64,000 bases of DNA from Escherichia phage KKE7M: the sequence record PQ356295.1; one strand, written 5' to 3'. The translations under genes were made by a program, and so were the position numbers. Shown here piece by piece: positions 12,731 through 29,301 of the stretch. The notes under the pieces are model-generated. The model did not search any database, was not told the origin of the DNA, and saw only the letters and a program-made list of their open reading frames with translations. Within the stretch, counting starts at the first letter, position 1, and every line of letters starts with the position of its first letter.

Positions 12731-13118
12731 CAACGGTATGAACTTGGACTCTGGTCTGTCTCCAAAGATTTCTATGGCACGACTGGAACAAGTTACTGGT
12801 CTTCGTCAAGTAAGTAATGGCGGTAAGATTATTCGTGATGACGCTGTACCTTTTAATAAATTTCAGATTGAACGTCATTACGATCCTGTAACTGCAAGTC
12901 TCACTGGTGTAACTTTCTCCGGTTATCGTACTGCCGGATACCAACGTAAGGTTGTAGCTGAACGTATTAAGAATCGCAAACAGAAAATTGCAACATTGAA
13001 GAAACTAGTAGAGAAAGATGTTTCAGAACTTCTTAACCTGTATGAAACTCTTGAGACAAAAGGTGAAGATCATAAACTCTTCTCTAAAGAAGATGTAAGC
13101 GTAATTTTCACTGACTAA
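12687..13118 (+). CDS. Hypothetical protein (143 aa)
   Basis: ATG after GGAGGA, overlaps MTase 3' end. Confidence 0.5.
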   Translation: MSTLNSKITLKALINNGMNLDSGLSPKISMARLEQVTGLRQVSNGGKIIRDDAVPFNKFQIERHYDPVTASLTGVTFSGYRTAGYQRKVVAERIKNRKQKIATLKKLVEKDVSELLNLYETLETKGEDHKLFSKEDVSVIFTD

Positions 13119-13129
13119 GATAAAAGAAA

Positions 13130-13153
13130 AGGAGCCTAATGGCTCCTTTTTTA
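13130..13153. terminator. Bidirectional intrinsic terminator AGGAGCC-TAAT-GGCTCCT + TTTTTT between convergent genes
   Basis: Perfect stem, T6 run on plus; lies between the plus gene ending 13118 and the minus gene ending 13154. Confidence 0.7.
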
Positions 13154-15973
13154 TTAGTCGTAATATTTCAAACCTGTAATAAAGACTGATCCCCAATCGT
13201 ACAAGCTGGAGTAGTTTATTGTCCAAGTAGATGCCGTACCAGAGAATACGTCACGAACAACGTCCCCGTTGGAATAGTAAACATCCACACCAGTATGTCC
13301 GTTCCTTGGTATAGTGAAGGATACTCCTCCTAAACTTCCAGGATATGTGCAGACATAAGGCGCTCCAGCTTTTGATGTTTCTCCTGTAGGAGCACCTTCA
13401 AGCTGTGGCAACCAAACTGCAAGGTTACTAGTACCATCTCCAGCGAAAATCTCCGCGCCAGTCGCATCCAAGGCAATTATTTCAAAACTTATGGAGGACT
13501 GTTTGGCTATCCCTGTTTTATGCAGAATAGCACGATACCAACCGTTACCCATAGATATAATATTAGCTTCACTTCCTGTGAATGTACCTGCTGCTAAATC
13601 AAAAGTACCCTCATTAACTTCAGTTCCTGCTTTTAATCTTAGTTTGGCCTTAGTAATCCCGTTCGCTTTCAAGAAAACAGAGGCAGACCAGTTACGTCCG
13701 GCATATATGTTATACGCGTTAGTATATGTTGCAGTTAAAATATGACTACCAGATGTTGTAGTCGGAGTTAATTTGAATACATTGGCAGTAGTTCCAGCCG
13801 GAGAGTTATCAGATGAAGCTGTAACAGTTAAGTTGGTCTTTACCCACGGACTTGCACTTGTTAAGGCGTTGTTGACAAAAATTTGTGAAGCTGTGTTAGC
13901 TGTTACACGTCTGCCTACAGGGGTAGTACCAACATACTCCAACGGAGCAACCAAGGTATTAGTGGCTACAAGTGTATCTCCAGAAGTACGAGCAAAAGAG
14001 TTCCCACCATTAACCTTAACATCTGATGGAAGAGTTTCTTGCGTCAAATCATAGTCCATCACGACAGGTTTATCTTCTTCGGTTCCTGCTGTAACGTTAA
14101 CATTAAAACGTACTAAAGGAGATAACACATCATTTGCTTCGTCATAATATGCAACATCAAATATAGTAGTTCCTGCTGCAAAACCATATTGTGCTACTTG
14201 ATCTGCATAGGTAAACGTATAGCTGTTCGTATTAAGTGTTTGTTCAGTTAATACAGATGCTGTTAAGACGTTAATATTACGGAAGTAGTGTTTACTATAA
14301 CCTTGAGCATCCCATGCTAAAATTGTATCTTGATTAGATTGGGAAATAGCTGTTGCTCCAGTTGGAACAGCCATATCAACCCAAACAGGTGACGTTGATG
14401 TTAGGTCTGTACCGTCTGCTGCTGATTTAGCAAGTTTTGTAGCTGCTGTCTGGTATACAGAAGAAATATAATGGGTACGACCATCAATACCTTCTTCATA
14501 AACATAACCACTGTAACGTTCAGCACCATCTACCCAAGAACCAATGATAACATCATCACGTGCCGTAGAGATGGCTCTTTGTACATTTCTGTATTTCTGC
14601 CAATCCACACCATTAACTTCTACACCATATAAATAAGAACGTCCTAGGATCTGCCAAACAATTTTTGCTTGAGAAGCAGGAACTATTGTACGCATCTTAT
14701 CAAAGATAGCTATTGTAGCATCATGGTAACGTGTAGTGTTACTGTATCTACCTGCAACAGTTGAAGATGCTGATACAGCATCATTTTCACCTTGTCCCCA
14801 AATAATTGCTTTAACCTTACTTGCATAAGGTGTGACTTTAGTGATAAAATTAGTTAAGCATGGCCCATCTGCTGTGTTATCCAGATCATACCAGTAGTTG
14901 TCTGGTGTACCTGTTCCAGCTTTATCGTCAGCATATTTATCTGCTGCTGATGATCCAGAAGCTGTATTTAACGGAAGAACTTCAGCATTTGCTAAACCAC
15001 GTTGCGTAGCATATGCATTACGGGCTGTTGTGCTACTGATTGCTGCTTTATTTGCACCAGACAATTCTGTAAAGTGCGCATTTACGTTATCTTGTCCAGC
15101 AAAGACAATAACTTCTTTAATGAACGAATCATCTGTAGCTATTGAGTTATTAAAGATAACAGGTGCTGCTTTGGTGCTCTTAACGCTAATTTTAAGGTAT
15201 GTTGGAGCAAACCCATAAAGAGGAATAGAGTCAGAGATATCAAAGTAAGCATGAGTATTCGTGGTTGTTGTAGTCCACTGAACACTGTTATTACTTAAAT
15301 CTAACACTTCTACAGTATAAGTATCACCATCTAGCGGATCAGCTACATCCCAAGCAACACGAACGTCTCCATAGCTGTTTGCCACGGCTGTTACATTAGA
15401 AATAACAGGAATAGCATTAACACCTAAATAAGAACTATCAGAGGCCACAACTGTTCCTTGATACGTTGCAGTACAACCTATACGGCAATTACCATCTTTA
15501 AGAGCAGTTATTAATCCTGTAGGGCTTACAGTAGCTACTTCTGGATCTGTTGTGGTATACGTAATTACCATATCTGGAAGGTCTTTAGCACCTTCTGGAC
15601 TGATTGTAGCAACCAACTGTTGAGTAGTGCCTACATCCATAGCAGATAGACTTTCAGTGTACACACTTAATTCTGAAGCATAACCACCAGATTGATCAGT
15701 TAAGACAGCACCTAAATTATTTTTAGCTGTCATTATTGCATCAAAACCACCTTCGGCAACAAACTCCATCATACCACTATTATCTATAACCATTTTGGTA
15801 TTATCTGAAGATGAAAAAGCTATATCAAATAACGCACCATCTTCCGGTGAAACTGTGTATGTCAGTTGCTTTTTACTACCAACTATTGCAATACCAATAG
15901 AGGAAGTGGTTATAGATGTAGCTGTTACTACTGAAGCTGATGTTGTTGACATAAATAAAGGAATAGGATACAT
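13154..15973 (-). CDS. Tail fiber / receptor-binding protein with Ig-like region and SGNH/SASA-type esterase-like segment
   Basis: 939 aa, T/S-rich N-terminal repeats; FAGQDNVNAH resembles the GQSN motif of sialate O-acetylesterase-like SGNH hydrolases; last gene of the minus structural block. Confidence 0.55.
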   Translation of the reverse strand: MYPIPLFMSTTSASVVTATSITTSSIGIAIVGSKKQLTYTVSPEDGALFDIAFSSSDNTKMVIDNSGMMEFVAEGGFDAIMTAKNNLGAVLTDQSGGYASELSVYTESLSAMDVGTTQQLVATISPEGAKDLPDMVITYTTTDPEVATVSPTGLITALKDGNCRIGCTATYQGTVVASDSSYLGVNAIPVISNVTAVANSYGDVRVAWDVADPLDGDTYTVEVLDLSNNSVQWTTTTTNTHAYFDISDSIPLYGFAPTYLKISVKSTKAAPVIFNNSIATDDSFIKEVIVFAGQDNVNAHFTELSGANKAAISSTTARNAYATQRGLANAEVLPLNTASGSSAADKYADDKAGTGTPDNYWYDLDNTADGPCLTNFITKVTPYASKVKAIIWGQGENDAVSASSTVAGRYSNTTRYHDATIAIFDKMRTIVPASQAKIVWQILGRSYLYGVEVNGVDWQKYRNVQRAISTARDDVIIGSWVDGAERYSGYVYEEGIDGRTHYISSVYQTAATKLAKSAADGTDLTSTSPVWVDMAVPTGATAISQSNQDTILAWDAQGYSKHYFRNINVLTASVLTEQTLNTNSYTFTYADQVAQYGFAAGTTIFDVAYYDEANDVLSPLVRFNVNVTAGTEEDKPVVMDYDLTQETLPSDVKVNGGNSFARTSGDTLVATNTLVAPLEYVGTTPVGRRVTANTASQIFVNNALTSASPWVKTNLTVTASSDNSPAGTTANVFKLTPTTTSGSHILTATYTNAYNIYAGRNWSASVFLKANGITKAKLRLKAGTEVNEGTFDLAAGTFTGSEANIISMGNGWYRAILHKTGIAKQSSISFEIIALDATGAEIFAGDGTSNLAVWLPQLEGAPTGETSKAGAPYVCTYPGSLGGVSFTIPRNGHTGVDVYYSNGDVVRDVFSGTASTWTINYSSLYDWGSVFITGLKYYD

Positions 15974-15991
15974 TTAATCTCCTTAAATAAT

Positions 15992-16009
15992 AAGCCCCCG
16001 AAGGGGCTT
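15992..16009 (-). terminator. Intergenic hairpin (UUCG loop on minus strand) between tail fiber genes
   Basis: AAGCCCC-CGAA-GGGGCTT inverted repeat; weak U-tract on minus. Confidence 0.35.
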
Positions 16010-16012
16010 TGA

Positions 16013-17974
16013 TTATGTGCGTTTAGCAACAATAGCATCCACGTAATCGCCAACACCACAATATGTTAGTTGTAGTATTGTTACTCCGTTAGGATCTGTA
16101 TTAATATCACTAGAACCAATTACTTTATAAGATGGATCTAAAGTAACAGTACGACCTCCAGTGGCATCTTGGATAAGATAAACTATCGCAGAGAATGGTT
16201 TAGGTTTTGTACTATCTTCGACACCAGGCCATGCTTTTATAGTAGAGTTACCAGTAAGATTCAACACATTCATGTTATGTGTTCCTGGAGGTGTCCAGTC
16301 TCCTGTAACAGAATCGTTGGTATATGCTGTAACCTCTATAAAATTAGTTGTTACTTTTGTTGGAACTATATCTTGACCATCTACAGAACTAGTGAGTTCT
16401 TCCCATGCTCCATCTTTACGAGCATAAGTCTTACCATCACTAGGTGCATCTGTGATACTAGGTAGTGTACCTTGAGAAGTCCAGACAGTTACAGATGTTT
16501 TTAAGAACACCTCACCAGTGGAGATATTAAAGGCATAATCACCTTGTTTACCATCACTAGAGATTGGATCTGTTGTTTTAACAATCCAAGTTGCACCGTC
16601 TGTACCGTTAGTACCAGCGTCACCTTTTTCACCCTTATCACCTTTCAAACTACCCATATCTACATATTCAGCAGTTTGAGTTTGTTCATTATAGGTGTAA
16701 ATGTAAAGATGACCTGTATCTTCCGTCAGATAAGCATCACCGTAATTGGCTGTAGGAGGAAGTGCACTTGCAGACGCAACGTGTCCTTTTGCAGTGATTG
16801 GAGTACCAGCTAAACGACCAACATTTGTCCACTCTGTGGCTCCTTGCAACCAGACCCAAAGTTCATTATTGATCAGATAACCATCACCATCTTCTCCAGT
16901 TTGTGGTAGTTCAGAAGTGTTAGTCAGAATATCAATAATGGTCAACCCTGCGCCAGTTGGCCCCGTCAAGCCTTGTATACCCTGCTCACCTTGATCACCC
17001 TTGTCTCCCTTATCACCTTTTTCTCCTTTCAGAGAGGCAATATATTCGTCAATAGTACCAACGTTACCAGCATTTAACCAGACTTGATAAGCTGAATCAC
17101 CAGTGTTACCCTTATCTCCTTTGTCGCCTTTATCTCCTTTTGGCCCCACTATAGCGCCCATATTGATCCATTCTACACCGTTTGACACGTATAGATATGT
17201 ACCAATACTCCATGCTTGAGATGTGTTTCCATGAGATGCAGAAGGAAGATCTGAAACGGAATTAGCTGCGCCTTGGTAATCAAAACCATTAGCATTGTTA
17301 CCTGGTACACCTTGTGGCCCCTCTGGGCCAGGCTCCCCTTTATCACCTTTAATTGAAGCAAGATAATCTAGTTCTGTACCTTCGTTTCCTGCTGCAAGCC
17401 ATACTTCATAAGCAGATTTACCTTCTGGCCCCTGTGAGTTTACTTTTCTCCAAGCAGTACCATCCCAAGTATACATATTCTCGCCTACAATCCATGCATC
17501 CCCTGCATTGTTTCCAGTTGTAGGTAATTGGTTGGTATTAGATAGCGTCCCTAGTAGCTTTAATGGAGCACCGGGATCACCTTTTAAAGAAGCCAACCAC
17601 TGTGTCTCAGTACCTTGGAAACCATTGTCTACGGCAATCTGGTAAGCTGATTTACCAGCTTCTGGGATGGATTCTCTAAGATCTTCAATTTCAGCTTCAA
17701 TAGCATCTAATTCTGATTCTATTTGAGCAATGTCATCTGCATTACCCACATTTTTCCAAGCTGTATCTGAAATCCCTCCAGTAGATGTAGGAGTAGAATT
17801 AGCAGGTACAACTTTAGGTAGAGAACCTTTCCACTGATAGTAGTTACCGTCAGCTTCAAAGAGCAATGCTTCACGAGCATCTCTTAAGGTAAAACCACTT
17901 GCAAAACTTCTACGCTTTCTATAGCGAGACTCTACCATGTCTGCAATGGCACTATTTGGACGTGTTAAAATCAC
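16013..17974 (-). CDS. Tail fiber protein with collagen-like (Gly-X-Y) repeats
   Basis: GTG start after AAGGAG; runs such as GDKGDKGDKG and GEKGDKGDKGDQGEQGIQG alternating with W-rich motifs; N-terminal motif PKVVPANSTPTSTGG shared with 25056-27125. Confidence 0.7.
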   Translation of the reverse strand: MILTRPNSAIADMVESRYRKRRSFASGFTLRDAREALLFEADGNYYQWKGSLPKVVPANSTPTSTGGISDTAWKNVGNADDIAQIESELDAIEAEIEDLRESIPEAGKSAYQIAVDNGFQGTETQWLASLKGDPGAPLKLLGTLSNTNQLPTTGNNAGDAWIVGENMYTWDGTAWRKVNSQGPEGKSAYEVWLAAGNEGTELDYLASIKGDKGEPGPEGPQGVPGNNANGFDYQGAANSVSDLPSASHGNTSQAWSIGTYLYVSNGVEWINMGAIVGPKGDKGDKGDKGNTGDSAYQVWLNAGNVGTIDEYIASLKGEKGDKGDKGDQGEQGIQGLTGPTGAGLTIIDILTNTSELPQTGEDGDGYLINNELWVWLQGATEWTNVGRLAGTPITAKGHVASASALPPTANYGDAYLTEDTGHLYIYTYNEQTQTAEYVDMGSLKGDKGEKGDAGTNGTDGATWIVKTTDPISSDGKQGDYAFNISTGEVFLKTSVTVWTSQGTLPSITDAPSDGKTYARKDGAWEELTSSVDGQDIVPTKVTTNFIEVTAYTNDSVTGDWTPPGTHNMNVLNLTGNSTIKAWPGVEDSTKPKPFSAIVYLIQDATGGRTVTLDPSYKVIGSSDINTDPNGVTILQLTYCGVGDYVDAIVAKRT

Positions 17975-17991
17975 TTTACTACTCCTTTTAT

Positions 17992-18012
17992 AAAGGGGCT
18001 TTCGCCCCTTTT
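17992..18012 (-). terminator. Hairpin AAAGGGGC-TTTC-GCCCCTTTT (same as plus-strand hairpin at 7143, inverted)
   Basis: Perfect inverted repeat with flanking T/A runs between stop of 18015 gene and start of 16013 gene. Confidence 0.45.
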
Positions 18013-18014
18013 AA

Positions 18015-20429
18015 TTAAGCATTATTGACAGTAACAAAAGTAACAGGGTTCAGAGCTTTAATTTGTGTATTCTCTGCTGTAGGTGTTATAATTGGATCTG
18101 CAATATCTATTGTGTACAAACTATTTGTCACATACGTAGCACGTGCTATAGTTGTCACAAGATCGCCACCATTTGCTCCTGCACCTGGAATAACAATCTT
18201 AGTACCTGCCGCTTTAGCGTAGCCATTACTAGCCCAGTTTAAAGCATTAGACTGTAGATAGGTTTGACCTGTAACAGTTGCTTTTATTTTCTCATTATTA
18301 CTAAAGAAAGCACCACCTACTGTAACAACGTGTTTTTTACCGCTTGCACAATGAATAACTGTTCCAGTAGGGAAGTCACGCCCACCTGGGAATTCATCAT
18401 AATCTGTAAAATATTGTTCAGAAATAGTGGTTAAGACTGGCCCACGATGACCTGTACCATCAACAGCAGTTGGAACACCAAAGTTATTTCCAACCTGATC
18501 GCAACGATCAGTGTAGATTTTAGCAAAAGAAACTGTTGTTTCATCTCCGCTAAGTGCTGTACATCCTACCCACTTCATATACGTGAATTGGCTGCGAGTA
18601 TAGAAACCGCCACCACTTCCTTCTCCGCTTCCGTGTTGACCTATGAAGTCAATACTACGGCAACGAATGTTATTAAAGGTAGAGCTAGATGGTAGTCCAC
18701 GCCATTTAAAAACATTACAATTGATGTTACTAACAATTGTAGAGTTTTCCCAGGCATCTGATCCAGCCGTTGCAATCTCAATTGAAGATTCTGGAATATC
18801 CAAATTCTTAATTGTAAAGTTAATTGGTGGCCCCGCATATCTACCGCTGTTAACACCCCAGTCAATAAAGACCATGCGTGTTGAAACAGACGGATCATTA
18901 AGCAGATAACCAGTTAAACCATCAACTTCAAAATCTTGGCATCCGTATAATGCAACACCACAAGTAGTTAAACCTGTACCTGTTGAAACTGCTGTGTTAG
19001 GATAAACTTCATTATCACGTATTGTGAAGTTTTTACCCATTTCAACGTGTAAACATTGACGGCAATTGTAAACCCTATTCCCAATGATACTGAAATTACG
19101 TACATATTGTGAATCAGGAACATCAACACCATATGGGCCACTACCTGCTACACCAATACCAATACCCCAGTTTGCACCTTGTCCAGAAGCATCTACGTTA
19201 GCAATGTGGTTATTCTCGATAATCAAACCTTCAGTGTAGTGTTTTTGAACTACGTTAAGTTCAATAGCATCACCTTTGATATCGTGAATATAGTTGTTAG
19301 AGTAACGCCCATAGGTCATTACTTCTCCAGTACCTTGTTGCAGGATTGCATATTTACAACCATACATTTCGTTGTAACTGAAGTCCAACGTACCTTCACT
19401 AGTCATTGCTTGCATTAAGAATGCTGCTGTAGATGTTGCGTTGGAGAAGATATTACGATAGAATCGGCAATCCCCACCTAACATCTTAACATAACATTTT
19501 TCAAAGCGAACGTTTTCAATCCAACAGGACACAGTAGAAATCATTGTTCCACCGTTACCAGTGAATGTACCACCATACCAACGAATACCAGACATAGCAA
19601 TTGAGCTTGTGAATCTATAATTCTTATCTGCTCGTACTTGAATGTTATTTGTGTTAGCGAAAGTAATGGTTTTTAAAATTGCTTGAGTATCATCGGTAAC
19701 TCCATCACCAATTGCACCAAACTGCTCAGGCGTTACAAAGTATTGAGCTTGTAACAGGTTGCCTCCAGATGGAAGACCAACCATTGCTGCACCAGTGGTA
19801 GATGACAAAAGGTTTTTCTCTACATAAGAAGTAGAGGCTGTTGTTTTACCAATAAAAGCAAACAATTTGTTAGGTAGACCAGTAGACGGATCTAAACCTA
19901 ATGGTTCTGCCAGAATAATTTTACTATCTTTGATAGTAAATGCTTCACCTTGAATCTGAATTACACCGTTAATGGTGACAATAGCATTATCAAAGATATA
20001 AGGAGGACTGATTTCTGTTTCATATCCTGTAGCACCTTTAAAATACCAAGGATACACATCTGAAGCTAACTGTTCAGTTTTAAGAGCGTACAGAGTCCAG
20101 TTACTGTCTCCTACAGGTGTACCCTGCATAGGTACAGGGTTCGCAGTAGTGGCAGATGGAGCATAGTAGTACCCACTCAAGATACCGTTTTCAAAATAAC
20201 GTAACTGGTTAAATACAGTTTCAGTTGATCCTGCTGACCAAGCAACAGGACTCTTAAAGAAGAAGTTATCAACAAGTGCTTTACGCAGTGTAGGTATTAA
20301 ACCTGTTTCGGTTTCTACAGTTGCTGTAGCATCCCCGTTAATAACATCATGCATCTGGTTAGACGAGAATATAACCAGATCAACACCTTGTTCTAGTGTC
20401 GTCGCAGGATATGTTGGAAAATTCGCCAT
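18015..20429 (-). CDS. Tail spike / fiber protein (804 aa)
   Basis: Large ORF in tail fiber cluster; Gly/Asn-rich repetitive middle region suggests beta-helix-type fold (inference). Confidence 0.5.
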   Translation of the reverse strand: MANFPTYPATTLEQGVDLVIFSSNQMHDVINGDATATVETETGLIPTLRKALVDNFFFKSPVAWSAGSTETVFNQLRYFENGILSGYYYAPSATTANPVPMQGTPVGDSNWTLYALKTEQLASDVYPWYFKGATGYETEISPPYIFDNAIVTINGVIQIQGEAFTIKDSKIILAEPLGLDPSTGLPNKLFAFIGKTTASTSYVEKNLLSSTTGAAMVGLPSGGNLLQAQYFVTPEQFGAIGDGVTDDTQAILKTITFANTNNIQVRADKNYRFTSSIAMSGIRWYGGTFTGNGGTMISTVSCWIENVRFEKCYVKMLGGDCRFYRNIFSNATSTAAFLMQAMTSEGTLDFSYNEMYGCKYAILQQGTGEVMTYGRYSNNYIHDIKGDAIELNVVQKHYTEGLIIENNHIANVDASGQGANWGIGIGVAGSGPYGVDVPDSQYVRNFSIIGNRVYNCRQCLHVEMGKNFTIRDNEVYPNTAVSTGTGLTTCGVALYGCQDFEVDGLTGYLLNDPSVSTRMVFIDWGVNSGRYAGPPINFTIKNLDIPESSIEIATAGSDAWENSTIVSNINCNVFKWRGLPSSSTFNNIRCRSIDFIGQHGSGEGSGGGFYTRSQFTYMKWVGCTALSGDETTVSFAKIYTDRCDQVGNNFGVPTAVDGTGHRGPVLTTISEQYFTDYDEFPGGRDFPTGTVIHCASGKKHVVTVGGAFFSNNEKIKATVTGQTYLQSNALNWASNGYAKAAGTKIVIPGAGANGGDLVTTIARATYVTNSLYTIDIADPIITPTAENTQIKALNPVTFVTVNNA

Positions 20430-20770
20430 TAATTTTTGTCCTTACTTTGTGTGCGCTTCGTAATCTCCTCTAGCATTAATTGAACAGGAGCATTTTTTAA
20501 ATCCATTATTTTTTCAATCTTCTGTTCTAAGGCAGTATTATTTGCCATTAATGTAGAGTTGATCTGGTTAAGCATTTGAGCAAGTTCTGCTTTGGTAGCA
20601 TAAGTGGATTCAACAAACACCAACTTCTTTTCTAGTTCGCGGTACTTGTCTTCCATTTTGTCCAAATCACTTGCCATATCATCTATCTTCTGTTTGAAGA
20701 CCACCCAGATTACGCCAATAAGAGGGATAATCGCCTCTTTAGCGATATCCCATACTTCTGTTAGCTCCAT
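20429..20770 (-). CDS. Hypothetical protein with N-terminal hydrophobic segment and coiled-coil
   Basis: ORF in track; AIIPLIGVIWVVF followed by K/E-rich heptads. Confidence 0.5.
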   Translation of the reverse strand: MELTEVWDIAKEAIIPLIGVIWVVFKQKIDDMASDLDKMEDKYRELEKKLVFVESTYATKAELAQMLNQINSTLMANNTALEQKIEKIMDLKNAPVQLMLEEITKRTQSKDKN

Positions 20771-20779
20771 ACATTACCC

Positions 20780-21331
20780 CTATTTCTTAGGTCTTGTAGG
20801 CCAAGTTATATTAGGTGCATCTTCAACGTTAATTTGAATTAATGTTGCACGATAGAGTTTAACTTTTCCTAACCAATCTTTTTGTTCTTCAGATAAACCT
20901 TGTAATTCCTCTAAATCTTGAATCGCAGACACTTGATTCGTAGCCCAAGTTAACTCCTTTTCTAACTTAAGAGTAGCATCTTCAATAGCAAGACTATTGT
21001 GAGGAACAAATTTACCTTCAACATATTGCCAAGAGCCAATATTACTTTCATCTTCTATTTTATCTGGTGCATTATATGTAACTAAAATAGATTGTCCGGC
21101 AGGGAAATAGGTAGTAACATCTTTAGTAGCACCACGTACAATATTATTATCATCTAAGGTAATAAAATAAGCGTCGGGATATTCAGCCATCAAGGTTTTT
21201 TGAAGTTGATACCAATCATTACCATCCTTGTCTTGCAAAAAACCACCGCCAACAGAAAGATAAAGAATGTTTTCCTCTGTTAATTCCGGTTCGTACAATT
21301 CAAAACCTGTAAAAATAACATCTTTTTTCAT
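20780..21331 (-). CDS. Hypothetical tail-associated protein (183 aa)
   Basis: ORF colinear in tail module. Confidence 0.5.
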   Translation of the reverse strand: MKKDVIFTGFELYEPELTEENILYLSVGGGFLQDKDGNDWYQLQKTLMAEYPDAYFITLDDNNIVRGATKDVTTYFPAGQSILVTYNAPDKIEDESNIGSWQYVEGKFVPHNSLAIEDATLKLEKELTWATNQVSAIQDLEELQGLSEEQKDWLGKVKLYRATLIQINVEDAPNITWPTRPKK

Positions 21332-21340
21332 AGACTCTCC

Positions 21341-22324
21341 TTATGAAACGTTGGTTACTGTTATCCAGCTACCATTAATATAATATTGTAGCGGGGCTGA
21401 CCAATACCAAGCACCACGAAGTTCTTTCTTATCACCAAAGCCCCAACCTGTGATCACGTGACCAGCATAGAAACGAGACTCAGACACACCAGCTTGGATA
21501 CGTGCTCCTAAACGGATAGCAGACACAACAGAAGAAACTCTATTGTTAATGTTATTAATTTGGCCTTGCAAGTTGCTATTAACGTTGTTAATATTATTTT
21601 GCAGTGTACTTTGCAATGAGTTTAGTCTTGAGTTAAGATAATCTAATCTTACAAGAGCATTACCATTGCCAGTATCTTGACCAGAATTAGAACGAGGATT
21701 GTCTATTAAAACATAACCTGCATCATACAAACGGACTCCACAAGATGTTCCTCCAGTAGATGGATTTATTCTATAAATATAGAGTTGACCACCTGCACCT
21801 GGTTCAGAAGACATATTGCCTACTGTTTGTCCGTTATAGTTTCTAAAAAATAATGTTGCAGGATCTGTAGCACTTGTACCACAAGTGTAAATATCACCTG
21901 CATAGATAGCACCACCATTATCACGCTTAACAAGGACATTACCTACAACTTGGTTTGATGTTGCGTCTGTAATGTTAGCTGATAAGTGATTATGACTATT
22001 ATCTACGACTTGAATAGATAATGTTACAGCAGCATTACCATTCCATGTAACTTCACCTGTAGCATCACCTGCCATTGTAATTTTAGTACCGACTATAGGA
22101 AGATATGTAGTAGGCAATGTTGGGAAGAATTCATCTTGCATATAGCGAATCCAAGACCCAATATTGTTTAAAATCCAGTTCATTTCTTCACAAGTCATAA
22201 TCTGACCAAAATCCATACCAACATTACGGATGGTTTCTTTTGGTCTAATCTTGTTTGTGTTTCCCGTTCCTGGGAGGGTTACTGTTTGTGTCGCCCAGTC
22301 AGGGTAGTATTGTGGCTTTGCCAT
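21341..22324 (-). CDS. Tail fiber-like protein (327 aa)
   Basis: Asn/Gln-rich repeats typical of fiber shafts. Confidence 0.5.
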   Translation of the reverse strand: MAKPQYYPDWATQTVTLPGTGNTNKIRPKETIRNVGMDFGQIMTCEEMNWILNNIGSWIRYMQDEFFPTLPTTYLPIVGTKITMAGDATGEVTWNGNAAVTLSIQVVDNSHNHLSANITDATSNQVVGNVLVKRDNGGAIYAGDIYTCGTSATDPATLFFRNYNGQTVGNMSSEPGAGGQLYIYRINPSTGGTSCGVRLYDAGYVLIDNPRSNSGQDTGNGNALVRLDYLNSRLNSLQSTLQNNINNVNSNLQGQINNINNRVSSVVSAIRLGARIQAGVSESRFYAGHVITGWGFGDKKELRGAWYWSAPLQYYINGSWITVTNVS

Positions 22325-22337
22325 TAAGGGTAACTCC

Positions 22338-22967
22338 TTATTCTATTTGAGCTATCAGCATAGTCATTCGCCCTGTATCATCTCCTTCAGCCTCTGTGTA
22401 AAGAGAACCTAAACCACCTATACCATGAGGTGGCTTTGTGGCATAATAGGAAGTGAAACCAAAGGCTGCACCCGCTTTCGCACCTAAGCGATAACTGCTT
22501 AGTATCGGGAAAACGTTAAGTAACTGTGCTACTGCCTGATCGGATTGTAGACACAAATTATAAAAGAATACGTCGAATGTTTTATTTAATCCAACGTATG
22601 TATTAATCGTTTCTTTTTCTGTTCCTGTAAAACGAGCGAACATATCAATGATATCATCTCGCGTACCAGAAGACGCAACACGATAAGCCCTGATTTTTAA
22701 TATTGTACGATACTCTTCATCTGTAGCACCATTTCTTTCCATCCCCATTTCTTCACCAATAAGATCTAAATACTTACCAGTTGCAGTAGAGATTAAGCGG
22801 TGTTTGGCAAGATAGATCATTGCCTGATCTATCTTTTGTTTTTCGCTAGAAATGATATAGAGTAGTTTGACAATGTTCGGAGAAGATTTAAAATCTTCAA
22901 TCAGTAGGTCTTTAACATCTTCATTGATACTATCCCACGTTGTCACATGGTCAACACTCACTGCCAT
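22338..22967 (-). CDS. Hypothetical baseplate/tail protein (209 aa)
   Basis: ORF colinear in tail module. Confidence 0.5.
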   Translation of the reverse strand: MAVSVDHVTTWDSINEDVKDLLIEDFKSSPNIVKLLYIISSEKQKIDQAMIYLAKHRLISTATGKYLDLIGEEMGMERNGATDEEYRTILKIRAYRVASSGTRDDIIDMFARFTGTEKETINTYVGLNKTFDVFFYNLCLQSDQAVAQLLNVFPILSSYRLGAKAGAAFGFTSYYATKPPHGIGGLGSLYTEAEGDDTGRMTMLIAQIE

Positions 22968-22969
22968 TT

Positions 22970-24457
22970 TTAGACTCCGTACTCGTAGGAAATATTATCA
23001 AGGTCAAAGGATGGTACAACATTGTACGCTGGAGTAATATCTCCCTCATTATATTTACTGTCATCCTCAGTATTAAGTTTAACATAAACACGGAGAGAAG
23101 TCAAGCGTCCGAACGCAAGTGCAGAATAAATTACACCTTTTATCTGATCGTTAGTTACTGTTGACCCTAATTCAAAATAAGCCTGTAAGTTTGCAAGAGC
23201 AGAAACAATATTTTCCCTTTCTGTTGTACTTAACACACTACCATTGCCAGTTTGATACACCAGTTTAAGTGAGTATTCCGCATTATCACCAGGAGAAAAA
23301 CGAATTACTTCTTGACCACCATCTTCTGTTATGATAGTAATTGCTGTCGTACCATAAGTTAAGGTGTTAATAGGCTTAGTATTATAAATAACCTGTGCAA
23401 CTTCTTCTGCTGTACCACCATACACAATAGTCTGGAATGTCATAGCTGGAGCATGTTCCTGATCGTGTAGTGTAGGGTTATCATAAATCTTAACCTTTGT
23501 CACGCCATCTGTTAGTAGTAGAGCTTTAACAATAGCAGCACGAGTAGCAGCATTAGCTTCATCCATATTATCATTGAAACGAGAACGGAATTCTGCATCT
23601 GTTTCAACATCTGTACCTGGAGAGAATGGATAGAAGTTACCTGTATCTAAGAAGCCTGTAAACGTTGAAGAAATACCTGTAATACTTTCTGTACCTACTG
23701 GATTATAACCAACGTCTGAACACGTAACTGGAATTTCACTCCATTTTGTACCTATTGCAATAGATGCGTAAAATTTCACTGGTGTTACTAGACCTATTGG
23801 GTTAACATTATCTTCTGGATTATAACCCATATAAACATTACTAGCATCATTCCATACTAAAGCACGATCTGTTGTTGATACGTTAGCTTTAATGAAATTC
23901 GTGAGATCTACAATAAAGTTTGTATTGCTAGGACTTAGTGTTTTACTGTTAAGACCACCATCAATAGCACTTTGAATGTAGAAAGTAATAGAAGTTTCAC
24001 CAGAAGCTGTTGCGTTTGCTTTAGAAATGGTATATGCTCCAATCTTAGCATTCAACATTGTCGGTGCACTGACATAATATGTCAAATCGTTATCGGCATT
24101 AAAATAAACATCTGTGCTTAGTTCATAAGTCCAAGCTGCCTTATTGTTAGATTTAACATAAGCATAACCACTACCAGCAGAAGCAGCTTTACGATAAAAA
24201 CCTCTTTTAGAGAAAATTTCATCAAGGTAAATACCTTCTGCACCATCTAAGGTTTGGGTATTGTAAACACCTTGCATACCTTCCCAAAGGGTGTAATCTG
24301 TATATGCAATAATACGAAACAGTTGACCAAAGACAGTATCTTCAGATGTAGCTGTATCTGCACCGAAAGTGTTTTTCAATGCTGTCATATAATTATTTAA
24401 AATATCATCAAACGTTGGAATTACAAAACCAGCATCTGTTAAACCATAATCTGCCAT
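22970..24457 (-). CDS. Putative baseplate protein (495 aa)
   Basis: Position in tail module, size. Confidence 0.45.
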   Translation of the reverse strand: MADYGLTDAGFVIPTFDDILNNYMTALKNTFGADTATSEDTVFGQLFRIIAYTDYTLWEGMQGVYNTQTLDGAEGIYLDEIFSKRGFYRKAASAGSGYAYVKSNNKAAWTYELSTDVYFNADNDLTYYVSAPTMLNAKIGAYTISKANATASGETSITFYIQSAIDGGLNSKTLSPSNTNFIVDLTNFIKANVSTTDRALVWNDASNVYMGYNPEDNVNPIGLVTPVKFYASIAIGTKWSEIPVTCSDVGYNPVGTESITGISSTFTGFLDTGNFYPFSPGTDVETDAEFRSRFNDNMDEANAATRAAIVKALLLTDGVTKVKIYDNPTLHDQEHAPAMTFQTIVYGGTAEEVAQVIYNTKPINTLTYGTTAITIITEDGGQEVIRFSPGDNAEYSLKLVYQTGNGSVLSTTERENIVSALANLQAYFELGSTVTNDQIKGVIYSALAFGRLTSLRVYVKLNTEDDSKYNEGDITPAYNVVPSFDLDNISYEYGV

Positions 24458-24702
24458 TAATTATCCTCCTTATCAGGGGCAGGTGATCTGCCCCAACGTA
24501 AATCTATTAAATTCTTCATTAGTCTGGATGGTGTGATCATAAAAACAAAAGCCCAGCCCATCCATTCAGGAATTTCTTTATCAATTCCCAAATAAATAAA
24601 CATACTGGACATAACAATCATACCAATAGCATTCCAAACTTTAGTAGAACTGACTTTATTATCAGGATATGTACAGAACATACCTATTAAAAATTTTCTC
24701 AT
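24457..24702 (-). CDS. Small membrane protein with two predicted TM helices and charged C-terminus (holin-like)
   Basis: 81 aa; hydrophobic stretches VWNAIGMIVMSSMFIYLGI and WMGWAFVFMIT; C-terminal RWGRSPAPDKEDN. Confidence 0.4.
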   Translation of the reverse strand: MRKFLIGMFCTYPDNKVSSTKVWNAIGMIVMSSMFIYLGIDKEIPEWMGWAFVFMITPSRLMKNLIDLRWGRSPAPDKEDN

Positions 24703-25007
24703 GATGCGTTCTCATTACTTTTTAAATCACGATATACAGCTAATTCCCCAAGGTCTACAGAACCCGCTGAATGCACAAGTACAGCAGCACTAAGACTAAT
24801 GGCAGTAGTACCTGGGGCAATATCAGCAGGTAGGGAATACGCCCTTTGCGTCTCCTTATCACAGATAACCTTATACCCACCCAAATCCACACCAACTGAG
24901 AAGTAAACAACCTCAGATTGTTTAACTCCAAAGTGACGGGCTACTGCTTGTTTATTGGTTAAGATTCCGGTTGAACCTTTACCACCTTGGGAGAATAACT
25001 CGTTCAT
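24699..25007 (-). CDS. Hypothetical protein (102 aa)
   Basis: ORF overlapping start of the downstream gene by 4 nt. Confidence 0.5.
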   Translation of the reverse strand: MNELFSQGGKGSTGILTNKQAVARHFGVKQSEVVYFSVGVDLGGYKVICDKETQRAYSLPADIAPGTTAISLSAAVLVHSAGSVDLGELAVYRDLKSNENAS

Positions 25008-25030
25008 ATAAACCTCTTTGTTTTTCTAGG

Positions 25031-25052
25031 AAACCCCGCCTAAGCGGGGTTT
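25031..25052. other. Intergenic GC-rich hairpin AAACCCCGC-CTAA-GCGGGGTTT
   Basis: Perfect inverted repeat between minus genes; T-run is on the plus side, so terminator role for minus transcripts is doubtful. Confidence 0.35.
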
Positions 25053-25055
25053 TAC

Positions 25056-27125
25056 TTAAGGTGCCAATCTTGATGCTTTCCATGCAACGGCACGGGTTCC
25101 ACTTATACCGCTAGAAGAATCTCTGATTAAGATGGTAAATGTTGTATCAGTTGCCGCAGTGTATGAAATTGCAACAGGAGAACCAGAATCTATAAGGGTG
25201 AACTCTATAAACTCTGGTGGCCTCGACATGCCATGTGGTATTACTTGGCCGTGTGAGTACGTACCGCTACCAATTGCTTCGGTAATAACCCCTGAGTTAT
25301 TGTTACTTCTGCTTCCTGAGTGGTTAGCCCCAAGAGCAATCACTTTCCGCCCTGTAATCCCGAATCCGAAAGTGTTTCCAGTAATCAAGGTGTCATATAT
25401 GGTCCGTGAATCAGGAAGAGAACCAGATACCGCATTTATCACAACCCCGTACTGCATCTGCCGATCTGTTCTGCGATTGTACATGCTGTTGCCGGTTATA
25501 ACAGTTCCCGTTATAGTCCCAGCCCCTGCACCGGAATTGCTTACCACTACCCCCGCTCTGAATGTATTAGCCACATCAGACGAATCACCAATACCCGTAA
25601 TCTGGTTTCCTGATATTAAATTGTTATCTGGCAGGACAGAGGCGTCATTGCAGGTTATCAGGATCCCAATATCGGTAAAAGCGTCAAAAACGTTATTTGC
25701 CACCACATTACCAGGACCCCATATCTCTACCCCTTTCGGTGTATTTGCACCGTCGCCAAAGAATTTATTCTCAGTAACGATGTTACCAGCACTTCTGATA
25801 AGAATAGCAGGTCTGAACTGTGCAGAAGTCCGTAGGCTGTCATTATACCCGTGGTTATTGGTGATATGTGATTCACTTCCAGCGGCATCAATGCAGCAGT
25901 TACAGGAGTTAATATTATTTCTGTGGATTTGTACGTAGGCGCTCCCCCCATCGTATTTAACGCCGTTCCAGAAATTTAAAATCCCGCAATCCATCAACTG
26001 CCCAGCCTTGGTCAATTTAACTGCATTAAGATTATCCTTAGAGTCATTGATCGCACGGAGATACACATACTGAATACGTCCCGAATCTTCAGTACTCGGG
26101 CTCTCGCCGTTATCAATAGCGTATCTATCCTTCCCAAACGGCCCGTCAAACGTGAAAGTAGTAAATGGAAGATTGTTACCTAGTTGCGCACCTACGTATC
26201 CAGATGCACCAACAATGCTCACTCCAACTGGTTTAATGAGCGTAGCTGTGGCAATTCGTGCGTCGCCAATATGGGTTACGTGACTTTTAGTGTGGTACAG
26301 CGCCAACTGATAGGCGTAATAATCATCAGTTACCCCATCACATTTAGCGCCGTAATTTTTAGCGTTTGTCTCCTTGTATCCATTAAGCAACCCTACACAC
26401 CTCCAATTAGTAGACGTGTATCTTGCTAACGGTTGAGCTGGAGGAACAGTGCCAGCTGGAACGGTTAACGGCGACGAAATAGCGCCTTCATATACCCAAA
26501 ACAAACCAGTGGAATGGTCACGTATGGCTTCGGTATTTGATGTTATGACAACATATTCTGTCGAGTCTCCTGCGTAGCTGTACCCTGATGCCAACCTCTG
26601 AATAGTGACACCATCCTGCGCAGTTAACACGAGCGAAGAACCAAACTTAGAAGCAAGATTACTTCTCAATGAAGAATCACCAACACTAACCCACGCACCT
26701 GTTCCAACACCACCTGTTGATGTAGGGGTTGAGTCAGCGGGAACAGCTTTAGGGAAAGCACCATCCCATGTATAGCACTGTCCACCAGCAATGTGCCAAA
26801 CAGCATCGGTTGAACTATTGGCTGTCGCCCCTTCTTCAAAGCTACCATCAACAAGAGTTAACCCAGCCTCGGCAAGACTACGACGCCACTGTTCACGATC
26901 ATTAAGAAGATTGTTATTCAACTCTTCCTGAACAGTATTACCATTTGAGGATTGTATTAAATCTGCTCCATCTGTATCTTTCAACTGGGTGGCTAAAACC
27001 ACCCCAGTGTCAGTAAGAAAGTTGGAAACTGTGCTTTTAACAGTCTTATCAGGTTGGTCTAAAACCAGGTAATCAGAACCATTAACTTTTGATGTTTCGG
27101 GTAAATTAGTAATTGTAGTTGACAT
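25056..27125 (-). CDS. Tail fiber / tailspike protein sharing an N-terminal module with 16013-17974
   Basis: Motif YTWDGAFPKAVPADSTPTSTGGVGTGAW matches YQWKGSLPKVVPANSTPTSTGGISDTAW in the other fiber; Gly/Asn-rich repetitive C-terminal half. Confidence 0.6.
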   Translation of the reverse strand: MSTTITNLPETSKVNGSDYLVLDQPDKTVKSTVSNFLTDTGVVLATQLKDTDGADLIQSSNGNTVQEELNNNLLNDREQWRRSLAEAGLTLVDGSFEEGATANSSTDAVWHIAGGQCYTWDGAFPKAVPADSTPTSTGGVGTGAWVSVGDSSLRSNLASKFGSSLVLTAQDGVTIQRLASGYSYAGDSTEYVVITSNTEAIRDHSTGLFWVYEGAISSPLTVPAGTVPPAQPLARYTSTNWRCVGLLNGYKETNAKNYGAKCDGVTDDYYAYQLALYHTKSHVTHIGDARIATATLIKPVGVSIVGASGYVGAQLGNNLPFTTFTFDGPFGKDRYAIDNGESPSTEDSGRIQYVYLRAINDSKDNLNAVKLTKAGQLMDCGILNFWNGVKYDGGSAYVQIHRNNINSCNCCIDAAGSESHITNNHGYNDSLRTSAQFRPAILIRSAGNIVTENKFFGDGANTPKGVEIWGPGNVVANNVFDAFTDIGILITCNDASVLPDNNLISGNQITGIGDSSDVANTFRAGVVVSNSGAGAGTITGTVITGNSMYNRRTDRQMQYGVVINAVSGSLPDSRTIYDTLITGNTFGFGITGRKVIALGANHSGSRSNNNSGVITEAIGSGTYSHGQVIPHGMSRPPEFIEFTLIDSGSPVAISYTAATDTTFTILIRDSSSGISGTRAVAWKASRLAP

Positions 27126-27133
27126 TTTTACTC

Positions 27134-29293
27134 CTATATATAAAATTTTTGTGTTGTTACTAAATCTTCTCCAGATTTAGTGGCTAATGTAATTCCACTT
27201 ATGGTGGCAATCTCAACATTTACCTGTTTAAGAGTGATATCTTGCAAGTAGCAATTCAAAGGCACATTACCCATATAAAACACTTGGGATTTTGAATTAA
27301 GAACAGTTATTGAATCATGCATTATTTGTGGGTAAGCCCATATGTATTGATATAAACCAACAAACTTCTGGTCATTCAATACGATATTGCCTATAATCAT
27401 TTTCCACAAATATGTTCTATAGTTTGATTCAGGATCAAAGCCATATAATGGTGCTAGAGTTGCATCTGGAACAAACCCTGCAAGATAATGTATCTTATCG
27501 TAACTAAAACCTAGTTGCTCATTAGGTATTGTGATAGCGTCGAAAGATCTTTCCATCTTACCTTCCAACAACCAATCATAACATTCTGAACAATAAAAGT
27601 CGAAGTTCTCTGGGATATAATAATCTTTAGGGAAGTTAACAAACTCCATCATACCATTACCTAAGATGGATGGTACAAATGGTAACAATGTAACTTTCGC
27701 TCCAGGGTATGCTAATCTGGTATCTGTTGCAAATTTAGCAACACGCAGTCCTAATGTTTTAGATAGGAATGCATAATATTCATCATATGGTGTACCAGTT
27801 TTATAATTTTTAACTGTACCAACATCTTGTGCATACAATCCAGTTTCATTATTAAATGCAACTTTGGTTGTATAATCATAAATACACGGTAGATTGGTAG
27901 CTGTATTATACCACCACCACGGTTCACCAACCTGAATAATAACCGGAAGATCATTAGCAGCGGATATAGAAGCTATCTTATTTATTACACCTTGTAAATA
28001 ATTCATCCCTTCATCAATTGAAGGAGATAAAACATAACTTGGTGGCTCATAACCTGTAGCAGCCAGATCATCATTCCAAGTATGTTGTACCCATTCTACA
28101 GGACACACTGTACTCATAAGTTCAAAACTTAAGGAGTTCATTACTGTGTAGCCCATAGCTTTTGCATTAGCGTGGAAGTTATCAAACCAGGCTTCTGTTG
28201 CTGGGTTTAAATATTCTGTTCTATTCAAAGCCCATTTATTAGATCCAGCATCCCAACTAAATTGATAATAGTGTGACATACCATTATAGTGGTTAATCAT
28301 ATCCCTATAACCTAATCTGTAGGTGTTAGAAATAACTCGCTCTGGGGTAAGGTTATACATATCATCATAAGATGTACACATTCTTATAGTGTGTGCTGGA
28401 ACATTTAAATTACCCATATTCATCATACTATAACCCGTATCAGGTTCCAGTATGGTAAACTTAAAGGAAAGATCCTCATTGTCTACAGGAATAATATCTT
28501 CAATTTCTTGATACCTTGTGGAGATCAAGGAGAAGAACATATTATCTATCTGTGTAGTGTCAACAACAATATCATTTTCTGGCCCAGATTTTAAATTTGA
28601 GAAATCTAATTTTATTGTTGCTGTTTTACCATCCTCTGAAACTTCTTCTGCATAAAAGTTTAGAGATACATAATGAACTGTTTCATCCTTCAGTGTCACT
28701 GTTAAGGATGGCAATAATTTTTCTTCTTTTAATCCAGGAACACCTTGACTAAGTTCCATTTTAAACCAAAGTTTCTCTTTACTTAAGTCAGAATGTTCTT
28801 GGTAGCCTAATCCTTTGTGATCATATTTATCGTAAGTTGACCAAATAATCCCAGCAAGACCAGCCACTGTCCTATTAACCATTCTTGCTGTGAAAGAATC
28901 ACCATTAGAGATAATAGAACAACTTTCTGTTGCTTGAGAATCTATTGTCCAAAACTTAGGATCAAACATTCTAGACTTCACAACAGGCCAAGTTAGCGGG
29001 GTCGTATTCGATTGATTAGTCGTAATAACACAACGAATTTCTTCATTGATCATCATGTTATTTTGACTTATGCTAGTAATCTCAAGAGTAAAATAAAGAT
29101 CTAAAGAGTTTGCCGGACGTTCATATACATCAACCACTACAGTAGCAGAATCTGCATCAGAAGGGAACGTTACTGTTCCCTGTTTAGCTACATAATCTCT
29201 ACCAGCGACCGCCGTTCCATCGACGGTCTTATAGCTGAATGAACTGGCATTTACTCTCGTATTTCGAGTTACAGTAAAAATAGCCTGTTTCAT
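27134..29293 (-). CDS. Large tail/baseplate structural protein (719 aa)
   Basis: ORF colinear in tail module. Confidence 0.5.
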   Translation of the reverse strand: MKQAIFTVTRNTRVNASSFSYKTVDGTAVAGRDYVAKQGTVTFPSDADSATVVVDVYERPANSLDLYFTLEITSISQNNMMINEEIRCVITTNQSNTTPLTWPVVKSRMFDPKFWTIDSQATESCSIISNGDSFTARMVNRTVAGLAGIIWSTYDKYDHKGLGYQEHSDLSKEKLWFKMELSQGVPGLKEEKLLPSLTVTLKDETVHYVSLNFYAEEVSEDGKTATIKLDFSNLKSGPENDIVVDTTQIDNMFFSLISTRYQEIEDIIPVDNEDLSFKFTILEPDTGYSMMNMGNLNVPAHTIRMCTSYDDMYNLTPERVISNTYRLGYRDMINHYNGMSHYYQFSWDAGSNKWALNRTEYLNPATEAWFDNFHANAKAMGYTVMNSLSFELMSTVCPVEWVQHTWNDDLAATGYEPPSYVLSPSIDEGMNYLQGVINKIASISAANDLPVIIQVGEPWWWYNTATNLPCIYDYTTKVAFNNETGLYAQDVGTVKNYKTGTPYDEYYAFLSKTLGLRVAKFATDTRLAYPGAKVTLLPFVPSILGNGMMEFVNFPKDYYIPENFDFYCSECYDWLLEGKMERSFDAITIPNEQLGFSYDKIHYLAGFVPDATLAPLYGFDPESNYRTYLWKMIIGNIVLNDQKFVGLYQYIWAYPQIMHDSITVLNSKSQVFYMGNVPLNCYLQDITLKQVNVEIATISGITLATKSGEDLVTTQKFYI

Positions 29294-29301
29294 TATTTTC
29301 C

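Follow-up and report, generated by a model that had tools for sequence, protein, structure and literature searches.

A tailspike head module shared by a collagen-like fibre and a variable tailspike in the adsorption gene cluster of a phi92-like phage

The shared block is a D2-type head module

Escherichia phage KKE7M encodes two tail proteins that share a block of sequence and have unrelated distal parts. In the stretch of 64,000 nucleotides (nt) of sequence record PQ356295.1 that we analyzed (the window), these proteins, referred to here as P1 and P2, are encoded by open reading frames (ORFs) at 16013-17974 and 25056-27125, respectively, where the initial annotation had placed them; both are on the minus strand. 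The shared block is a D2-type tailspike head module plus neck. The initial annotation, which was made from the letters of the window, took the block to be a common attachment module that would seat alternative receptor-binding proteins on one adaptor. Its view of P1 and P2 as receptor-binding proteins that have one module in common and whose distal parts are unrelated has held, but common attachment, a single adaptor and alternative use have not. We consider it likely, with good confidence, that the block is a generic portable module at the boundary between anchor and distal part and not a plug into one adaptor.

The window derives from a phi92-like Justusliebigvirus, as positions 13000-30000 have 97-98% nt identity to PaulScherrer, BME3 and other phages (about 10% of the region being uncovered in the best matches). 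Both genes are situated within a 20-kb minus-strand run of tail and baseplate genes and, judged by its sequence, the region belongs to a cluster of genes for multivalent host adsorption in a phi92-like myophage (Justusliebigvirus, Stephanstirmvirinae). In translated comparisons the window counterparts of phi92 gps 140, 141, 142, 150 (the colanidase) and 151 had identities of 100, 99.3, 99.2, 98.9 and 98.0%, respectively, the last over 653/653 amino acids (aa). The gene order is the same as that of the phi92 adsorption apparatus (gp140-gp153), which was reportedly described by Schwarzer et al. in 2012.

Residues 23-89 of P1 aligned without gaps to residues 95-161 of P2, with 42% identity over 67 residues (BLASTP with composition adjustment, E = 5e-12). 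The domain identity of the block was established by matches to PF18668 (Tail_spike_N, the TSP1/Gp66 N-terminal domain), which scored 75.9 bits on P1 aa 11-77 (E 2.7e-21) and 78.6 bits on P2 aa 93-150 (E 3.9e-22), relative to a gathering cut-off of 25 bits; the block, a domain of 60 residues, is thus already catalogued, as a Pfam family with solved structures. A six-frame tblastn search of the window found no copies beyond those of P1 and P2 (E 6e-14 and 2e-13; next E > 5), and an all-against-all BLASTP comparison of 17 tail proteins found no other common segment at E <= 1e-3. In AlphaFold2 monomer models both blocks have the same strand order, five or six short strands and then a helix, with predicted local distance difference test (pLDDT) values of 75-88 (local values for the block, 83-88 in P1 and 82-88 in P2).

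Foldseek matched both models to the heads of the CBA120 tailspikes TSP1, TSP3 and TSP4 and to G7C gp63.1 with a probability of 1.00. The P1 model was aligned with gp63.1 (4qnl) over 76 columns (root-mean-square deviation, rmsd, 4.2; 42% identity) and with 4oj5 over 72 columns (rmsd 4.5), and the P2 model with 9d84 over 95 columns (rmsd 5.0). A PDB sequence search located the block in CBA120 TSP1 (aa 99-177), TSP3 and TSP4dN and in G7C gp63.1, with additional matches to 8x8m, 9d80/9d84 (Shigella phage B2), 9occ, 9vvr and 9lna; CBA120 TSP2 had no match to the block in this search. In CBA120 TSP1, TSP3 and TSP4 a helical neck comes after a head of approximately 170 residues that consists of two modules, D1 and D2; TSP2 has D1 only (PMC7506556, PMC8825819). 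Based on the position of the block and the missing match to TSP2, we assigned it as D2 plus the neck.

The possibility that the likeness is a compositional coincidence between Ser/Thr/Pro/Gly-rich stretches, which the initial annotation had named as the outcome that would undo its reading, draws on the abundance of small residues in PxxSTPTSTGG, the stretch that is conserved best. However, the BLASTP match was obtained with composition adjustment, both Pfam scores (~76-79 bits) far exceed the 25-bit cut-off, the same domain occurs in solved structures, and the two models are confident with the same order of secondary structure elements. On these four lines of evidence we rejected coincidence, to which we assign next to no probability. 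It is also highly improbable that the block marks a duplication or gene conversion that took place recently between these genes within this genome. The copies are on the same strand, 9 kb apart, and have nine identical residues (STPTSTGG plus flanks), but their nt identity in the window is 51%, falling to 33% at third codon positions, and their longest exact run is 8 nt. Moreover, both copies resemble counterparts in other phages more than they resemble one another: the P2 block has up to 84% DNA identity to tailspikes of Kuttervirus and other phages, and the P1 block aligned best to PDB 9vvr. Of the two copies, phi92 has only that of P1. The codon-position analysis led us to reject recent duplication. 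The two copies are old and their likeness has been maintained at the protein level only.

P2 is a modular tailspike in the gp143 slot

Based on synteny with phi92, PaulScherrer and alia, P2 (25056..27125, 689 aa) occupies the slot of the phi92 endosialidase, gp143. The two proteins have only aa 1-54 in common, a segment that we term the lineage-specific anchor (module A; 26964..27125, minus strand, as are all P2 and P1 features described here) and in which identity to aa 1-54 of phi92 gp143 is 94%. As this segment is conserved in alia, nieznany and PaulScherrer regardless of what is downstream, it is expected to be the anchor of the tailspike. Since the other phi92 tail proteins that we compared are 98-100% identical, aa 1-54 would have to be what holds P2 on the virion. 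The anchor is followed by a linker (aa 55-92; 26850..26963), which contains a long helix (aa 63-86 in the model) and within which, at aa 69-75, many unrelated tailspikes start to align to P2. The PF18668 D2-type module spans aa 93-150 (26676..26849), as determined by the Pfam match, the PDB matches and pLDDT. Consequently, the block is not N-terminal in P2, as had been noted initially, but starts at aa 93, after the 54-residue anchor and the linker helix. It leads into a neck helix (aa 148-158 in the model) within a segment, aa 151-170 (26616..26675), where homolog alignments end and which is probably the main recombination junction.

The remainder of P2 (aa 171-689; 25059..26615) is an exchangeable body. 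Its relatives from uncultivated phages (P0001-P0011) are 63-92% identical to it, and two of these, P0009 and P0011, carry PF12708 and PF13229. P2 itself had no match to beta-helix Pfam families. Its AlphaFold2 model, built from a 35-sequence alignment, has a mean pLDDT of 55, and the top Foldseek matches of this low-confidence model were CBA120 TSP3, TSP4 and TSP1, the HK620 tailspike and alginate epimerases, with template modelling (TM) scores of 0.1-0.25. Based on the bodies and Pfam domains of its homologs and on the fold search, the body is most likely a right-handed beta-helix glycan depolymerase. The description of P2 as Gly/Asn-rich and repetitive amounts to the ordinary composition of a beta-helix tailspike: P2 has 10.9% G and 7.4% N, values indistinguishable from those of the neighbouring colanidase (10.6% G and 7.2% N).

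In a collection of 50,697 phage genomes there was no record that covered at least 80% of P2, and no phage in the annotated records of that collection shares its body. The best full-length relative in a set of 5.8 billion proteins was P0004, which is 79% identical. Just after the P2 stop codon is a terminator-like G+C-rich hairpin with a T-run, AAACCCCGC-TTAG-GCGGGGTTT (25031..25052, minus strand), which we read from the sequence; a conserved 20-nt terminator motif has been described downstream of receptor-binding protein (RBP) genes in Justusliebigvirus (Pas et al., 2023; PMC10408124).

There is also a resemblance between the P2 anchor and the small tail-fibre protein gp140. Residues 5-42 of P2 (27000-27113) are 37% identical over 38 aa to residues 9-46 of gp140 (32514-32627), with E = 5e-6 in the pairwise comparison and E = 8e-4 relative to the 17-protein set. 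The motif that they have in common, [IV]s[dn]LPxTsxVxxsDYxVxDQxxxTxKsT, may represent a common docking peptide.

The head module is portable among tailspikes

A survey of the 120 best homologs of P2 revealed its mosaic boundaries. In 44 of these the phi92-type anchor and the block are joined to another body, and in 65 the block is behind a different anchor, or none, and again has another body. The block starts before residue 40, at residues 41-160 or beyond residue 160, depending on the homolog, and in 83 of the 109 homologs with a different body the alignment to P2 ends at aa 150-179. Dozens of relatives are 80-93% identical to P2 over aa 1-166 and have other bodies. The precomputed Pfam lists of the P2 homologs include at least 14 other families, among them beta-helix, GDSL esterase, GDPD, sialidase, pectinesterase, S74 chaperone and P22 head-binding families.

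The cassette is also present in phages of other morphotypes. One homolog (P0006), with 85% identity over block and body, is encoded on a contig of about 55 kb that has a tape-measure protein, i.e., a siphovirus. Another (P0003), with 83% identity over block and body, is in the tail-fibre position of a T7-like contig, where it lies behind PF03906, the T7 tail-fibre N-terminal domain. Such gene contexts indicate that the head-plus-body cassette moves among myo-, sipho- and podoviruses. In P0011 the body is present and the block absent. A metagenomic protein of 976 aa (P0047) has two PF18668 stretches in one chain (119.6 bits), which shows that the module can be tandemly duplicated.

At the DNA level, relatives stop matching the P2 gene at two junctions, having matched either nt 1-150/161 or nt 1-450/477, and its first 526 nt are matched by 628 phage records. 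Between these junctions, nt 357-465 have 70-84% DNA identity to tailspike genes of Kuttervirus, Kayfunavirus (including the K1F endosialidase), 9NA-like, N4-like and other phages. Where anchor and body of tailspikes meet, a conserved motif was previously reported and proposed to mark recombination hotspots, in Justusliebig-, Kutter- (all CBA120 RBPs except RBP2), Gamaleya-, Kayfuna-, Kaguna- and Nouzillyviruses (Pas et al., 2023; PMC10408124). As the distribution among phage groups matches, that motif would be within the D2-coding region. With a coding sequence that has been retained from one phage group to the next, the block is probably also a homologous crossover site for body swaps.

These features suggest a mechanism in which P2 would consist of three nested modules in the one hypervariable slot of the cluster. 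The lineage anchor (aa 1-54) would hold the spike on the phi92-type baseplate fibre; the portable head-and-neck unit (aa ~70-166), which contains PF18668, would follow; and the exchangeable beta-helix body would bind, and probably cleave, a surface glycan. The block itself, which in tailspikes of myo-, sipho- and podoviruses is situated where the anchor meets the distal part, is most likely a spacer or nucleation domain of the trimer, and its conserved coding sequence would favour cassette exchange. It is plausible, given its varying bodies, that P2 is a host-range determinant, as initially suggested; the same suggestion did not hold for P1 at the strain level within the genus, since P1 is at least 95% identical in 55 records.

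Does the block attach both proteins?

That the block is not the attachment module of slot 143 is indicated by three relatives, which fill this slot without it. In the proteins in question, phi92 gp143, alia gp023 and nieznany gp226, the anchor has been kept and PF18668 is absent, and phi92 gp143 passes from aa 1-54 straight into its endosialidase domains. P1 has no P2-type anchor, and the segments ahead of the block differ between the two proteins: P1 starts 22 residues before D2 with an N-terminal peptide of its own, and P2 has the phi92-type anchor and a helix in the place of D1. Neither protein has the two-module D1 + D2 head that is typical of docking in CBA120 and G7C. In CBA120, the only system for which there are binding data, the interface is formed by D1 of the TSP1 head, not by D2 (PMC8825819).

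An adaptor was also sought. A Pfam scan of 16 tail proteins gave no match to a T4 gp10-like XD domain, although this was a sequence-level search and XD is often detectable only by fold comparison. Phmmer searches of the PDB, supplemented for gp141 with a 30-sequence profile, found no gp10/TSP4-N relatives of gps 141, 140 and 150, likewise at the sequence level, and the only match was a marginal one to a mannanase (E 0.0023). The single adaptor that had been postulated is therefore not supported by these searches. "Alternative" is also the wrong word for these proteins, because phi92 displays three sets of fibres on the virion simultaneously (PMC13450770, PMC8594841). No switch was apparent at the P1 and P2 genes.

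The competing explanation is that P1 and P2 both dock via the block on the same adaptor, as the heads of CBA120 TSP1 and TSP3 do on gp10-like XD domains, which would provide alternative distal specificities on one scaffold. Several observations are consistent with such a plug: in CBA120 and G7C partner tailspikes are bound by the "head", of which the block is a part (PMC7506556, PMC8825819); it is the first folded domain of P1, with many residues that are invariant in orthologs; the phi92 record designates the N-terminus of gp151 a "potential capsid binding domain"; and branching exists in the family, as phi92 fibre II joins the base of fibre I (PMC13450770). However, natural slot-143 tailspikes that have retained the anchor without the block, the dissimilar segments ahead of the block in P1 and P2, the measured CBA120 interface in D1, the failure of Pfam and PDB sequence searches to reveal an XD/gp10-like domain in the tail proteins covered and the co-display of the phi92 fibres are all difficult to reconcile with it, and we regard docking through a common plug as improbable.

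Some points do weigh against our preferred explanation of the block as a portable boundary module. The cryo-electron microscopy study of phi92 did not place gp151 and placed gp143 tentatively (Chen et al., 2026; PMC13450770), and P1 and P2 are known in the phi92-like family from sequence and predicted models alone. The head of CBA120 TSP1 and TSP3 has been described as a partner-binding region as a whole (PMC7506556) and so D2 may contribute to docking, especially in P1, of which it is the first folded domain and where it is strongly conserved. The role of the boundary motif as a recombination hotspot is a published proposal rather than a demonstrated mechanism (PMC10408124). Lastly, the P2 model is poor (mean pLDDT 55, with aa 1-71, including the anchor, below 50), and hence the anchor fold and the beta-helix assignment are drawn mainly from homologs.

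A related idea is that P1 (gp151) is "fibre II" of phi92-like phages and docks at the base of fibre I, the gp141/gp142/slot-143 assembly. By analogy with CBA120, its basic N-terminal peptide and D2-only head could dock as the TSP1 head does on TSP4. We give this idea only an outside chance; if it is true, PF18668 would mark a family-specific branched assembly without D1 and without a recognisable gp10-like adaptor.

P1 is a conserved collagen-like fibre

P1 (16013..17974, 653 aa) has a GTG start codon with an AAGGAG ribosome-binding site upstream. Its gene is flanked by those for the colanidase gp150 and a gp152-like protein, as in phi92, and this conserved neighbourhood, together with the full-length identity of 98.0%, identifies P1 as the ortholog of gp151 and a collagen-like lateral tail fibre. 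Consistent with this, phrog_15437 ("tail fiber protein") covers P1 aa 1-653 and the counterpart in the PaulScherrer record is labelled "lateral tail fiber protein with type I collagen domain".

The N-terminal peptide (aa 1-22, LTRPNSAIADMVESRYRKRR; 17909..17974) is basic and is a candidate docking segment based on its near-invariance: T4-S8, D12, E15 and Y18-R22 are invariant, or nearly so, in 31 orthologs whose overall identities are only 40-98%, and the peptide has hardly changed even in those with identities of 40-60%. The D2-type module, which was delimited by the Pfam, Foldseek and PDB sequence matches (aa 23-80; 17735..17908), is followed by a long helix (aa 81-105; 17660..17734; aa 81-102 in the model) that may be a neck or a coiled coil, the 2012 phi92 record having predicted a coiled-coil fold for the "central domain" of gp151.

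The shaft (aa 106-504; 16463..17659) is composed of repeated units, namely a SAY..SLKG helix pair, a Gly-X-Y run and a Trp-rich beta-hairpin. The alternation of collagen-like runs with W-rich motifs that was described initially is borne out by these units. Four Gly-X-Y runs of 6-9 triplets each were mapped by regular expressions, at aa 210-227, 277-294, 317-343 and 445-462 (17294-17347, 17093-17146, 16946-17026 and 16589-16642), and alternate with three SAY...SLKG helix motifs and Trp-containing beta-hairpin motifs; P1 has 18 Trp in total. Self-BLAST of P1 did not detect these internal repeats. The Pfam Collagen family (PF01391) scored 32.3 bits relative to a cut-off of 27.2, the triple helix itself being predicted. 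In the monomer model the collagen runs have pLDDT values below 50 and the hairpin units 75-87. The collagen-coding DNA (16589-17146, minus strand) consists of 9-nt and 18-nt tandem repeats, with GDK-type triplets, in 2-4.6 copies, and the alia record marks a repeat_region in the orthologous gene. Ortholog lengths range from 622 to 681 aa, and slippage in these repeats could change the length of the fibre.

Next to the shaft is a foldon-like motif (aa 505-529, DAPSDGKTYARKDGAWEEL; 16388..16462). The T4 fibritin foldon family, PF07921 (Fibritin_C), scored 20.0 bits on P1 aa 493-529, which is below its gathering cut-off of 21, and we therefore treat the motif as a resemblance only. PF07921 is present in relatives of P1, and some orthologs pass the cut-off according to precomputed annotation. 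The C-terminal tip (aa 530-653; 16016..16387) is a predicted beta-sandwich domain that matches the C-terminus of phrog_4549 (E 2.3e-38) and is 48-50% identical to tail-fibre tips of Vequintavirinae. In the model it is all-beta (pLDDT 56-87) and it is presumed to be the receptor-binding end. The phi92 paper had remarked that gp140 and gp151 both resemble the Pa223 spike; BLASTP detected no similarity between the P1 tip and gp140 (E > 9), and the Pa223 capsid spike was among the Foldseek matches of the P1 model (E 1e-3).

P1 is presumably a trimer. From the N-terminus, its chains would contribute the 22-residue basic peptide, the PF18668 D2-type head, the long helix, the collagen-like shaft and the small beta-sandwich tip, and the helix pairs and foldon-like beta-hairpins would punctuate the triple-helix segments of the shaft and so keep the three chains in register. 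P1 is about 60% identical in Phapecoctavirus. With the conservation that P1 has within its own genus, it appears more likely that its target is invariant or that its role is structural.

Neighbouring genes

Directly after the P2 terminator is a 102-aa ORF (24699..25007, minus strand) which, based on its PHROG matches, is a stand-alone D1-type tailspike head with no D2 and no body. The ORF matches aa 1-95 of phrog_18484 (E 2.7e-44) and positions 327-420 of phrog_7992 (Kuttervirus-type tailspikes); it is 80-89% identical to tailspike heads of Ackermannviridae (Kuttervirus) and N4-like phages. PaulScherrer and nieznany have the ORF as well, alia and ALITA have a shortened form of it, and phi92 lacks it. 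It is probably what is left, in a state of decay, of a tailspike cassette that was acquired from a phage of the Ackermannviridae or G7C type.

The gene at 27134-29293 (minus strand), which adjoins that for P2, encodes the gp142 ortholog, a homolog of the N4 gp65 non-contractile tail sheath (PF23845, E 1.3e-81; PF23844) with an N-terminal Calx-beta domain. Its position beside P2, with its Gp66-type PF18668, is an echo of the gp65/gp66 pair of N4-like phages. A gp142-type protein has been linked to the ECA/NGR glycan (Maffei et al., 2021; PMC8594841). The next gene (29302-32178, minus strand) encodes gp141, a protein of 958 aa with no Pfam domain and no relative in the PDB. Homologs of 940 aa with approximately 55% identity (P0257-P0292) are encoded in chromosomes of Enterobacter, E. 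coli and Pseudomonas, and in one homolog of 1557 aa (P0340) there is a fusion to NCTSP (gp142-like) domains. As P0340 unites both types of protein, there is a hint in its sequence that gps 141 and 142 belong to one fibre.

The ortholog of the colanidase gp150 (18015-20429, minus strand) matches the solved chain 6e0v over aa 180-804. Over the first 126 residues it matches a PDB entry named "putative tail fiber protein" (9cuy/9mjn), and aa 123-197 have weak matches to tail-fibre and adaptor chains (23sh, 8es4 and 7y22). Since its N-terminal matches differ from those of P1 and P2, its attachment module differs from theirs. The wedge protein of the cluster is encoded at 22970-24457.

At 13154-15973 (minus strand) is a single ORF of 939 aa with a Big_2 domain, which is labelled "tail carbohydrate esterase" in ALITA and is full-length in PaulScherrer. 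Phi92 gp152 corresponds to its aa 1-198 and gp153 to its aa 335-628, with about 310 C-terminal residues covered by neither. The split in phi92 may reflect either a disrupted gene or a difference in annotation.

Implications and comparison with known systems

The modularity and exchange of tailspikes in Justusliebigvirus have already been published (PMC10408124), and our results leave the current understanding of tailspike modularity unchanged. What they add is the division of the 150 residues that are nominally the anchor, of which one part is the actual lineage anchor and another a portable head unit, the finding from natural variants that the block is dispensable for slot 143, and a P2 allele without a full-length match in the collections searched. 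For phage engineering, they point to two natural splice points in the phi92-like variable tailspike, after aa ~54 and after aa ~160-170, and so refine the rule used in host-range swaps that the first 150 residues are the anchor. They also narrow the question of fibre II raised by the 2026 phi92 structure, in that the PF18668 block cannot be the anchor of slot 143 and the conserved N-terminal peptide of gp151 is a candidate for fibre attachment.

The closest comparison is with phi92. While phi92 gp143 is an endosialidase that has a C-terminal chaperone and lacks PF18668, in P2 the block is present and the body is unrelated and of the beta-helix type. In addition, the window has the 102-aa D1 stub, which phi92 is without, and one 939-aa ORF in the place of the shorter gps 152 and 153 of phi92. 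The variable tailspikes of Justusliebigvirus and Phapecoctavirus have, as in P2, a conserved anchor and a horizontally exchanged receptor-binding body (PMC10408124, PMC8594841). Those papers treat aa 1-150 as one "anchor", whereas we divide it into the lineage anchor of aa 1-54 and the portable head unit.

By sequence and fold searches, the D2-type head and helical neck of P1 and P2 are the same as those in the branched tailspike complexes of CBA120 (Kuttervirus; TSP1-4) and G7C (gp63.1/gp66), and the underlying logic of a conserved N-terminal part with an exchangeable enzymatic body is alike. Unlike the proteins of those phages, P1 and P2 have D2 only, with D1 present here as the separate 102-aa ORF; the P2 anchor is of the phi92 type, and the distal part of P1 is a collagen-like fibre and not a beta-helix enzyme. 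P1 also resembles fibres that combine PF01391 and PF07921, such as those of Citrobacter phage Tr1 and Serratia phage ChuuTotoro, in which short Gly-X-Y runs also occur amid SAY..SLKG and beta-hairpin units. More distant fibres of the P1 type keep the shaft without PF18668, or have other N-termini and tips, and the domain combination of P1 is typical of the Stephanstirmvirinae.

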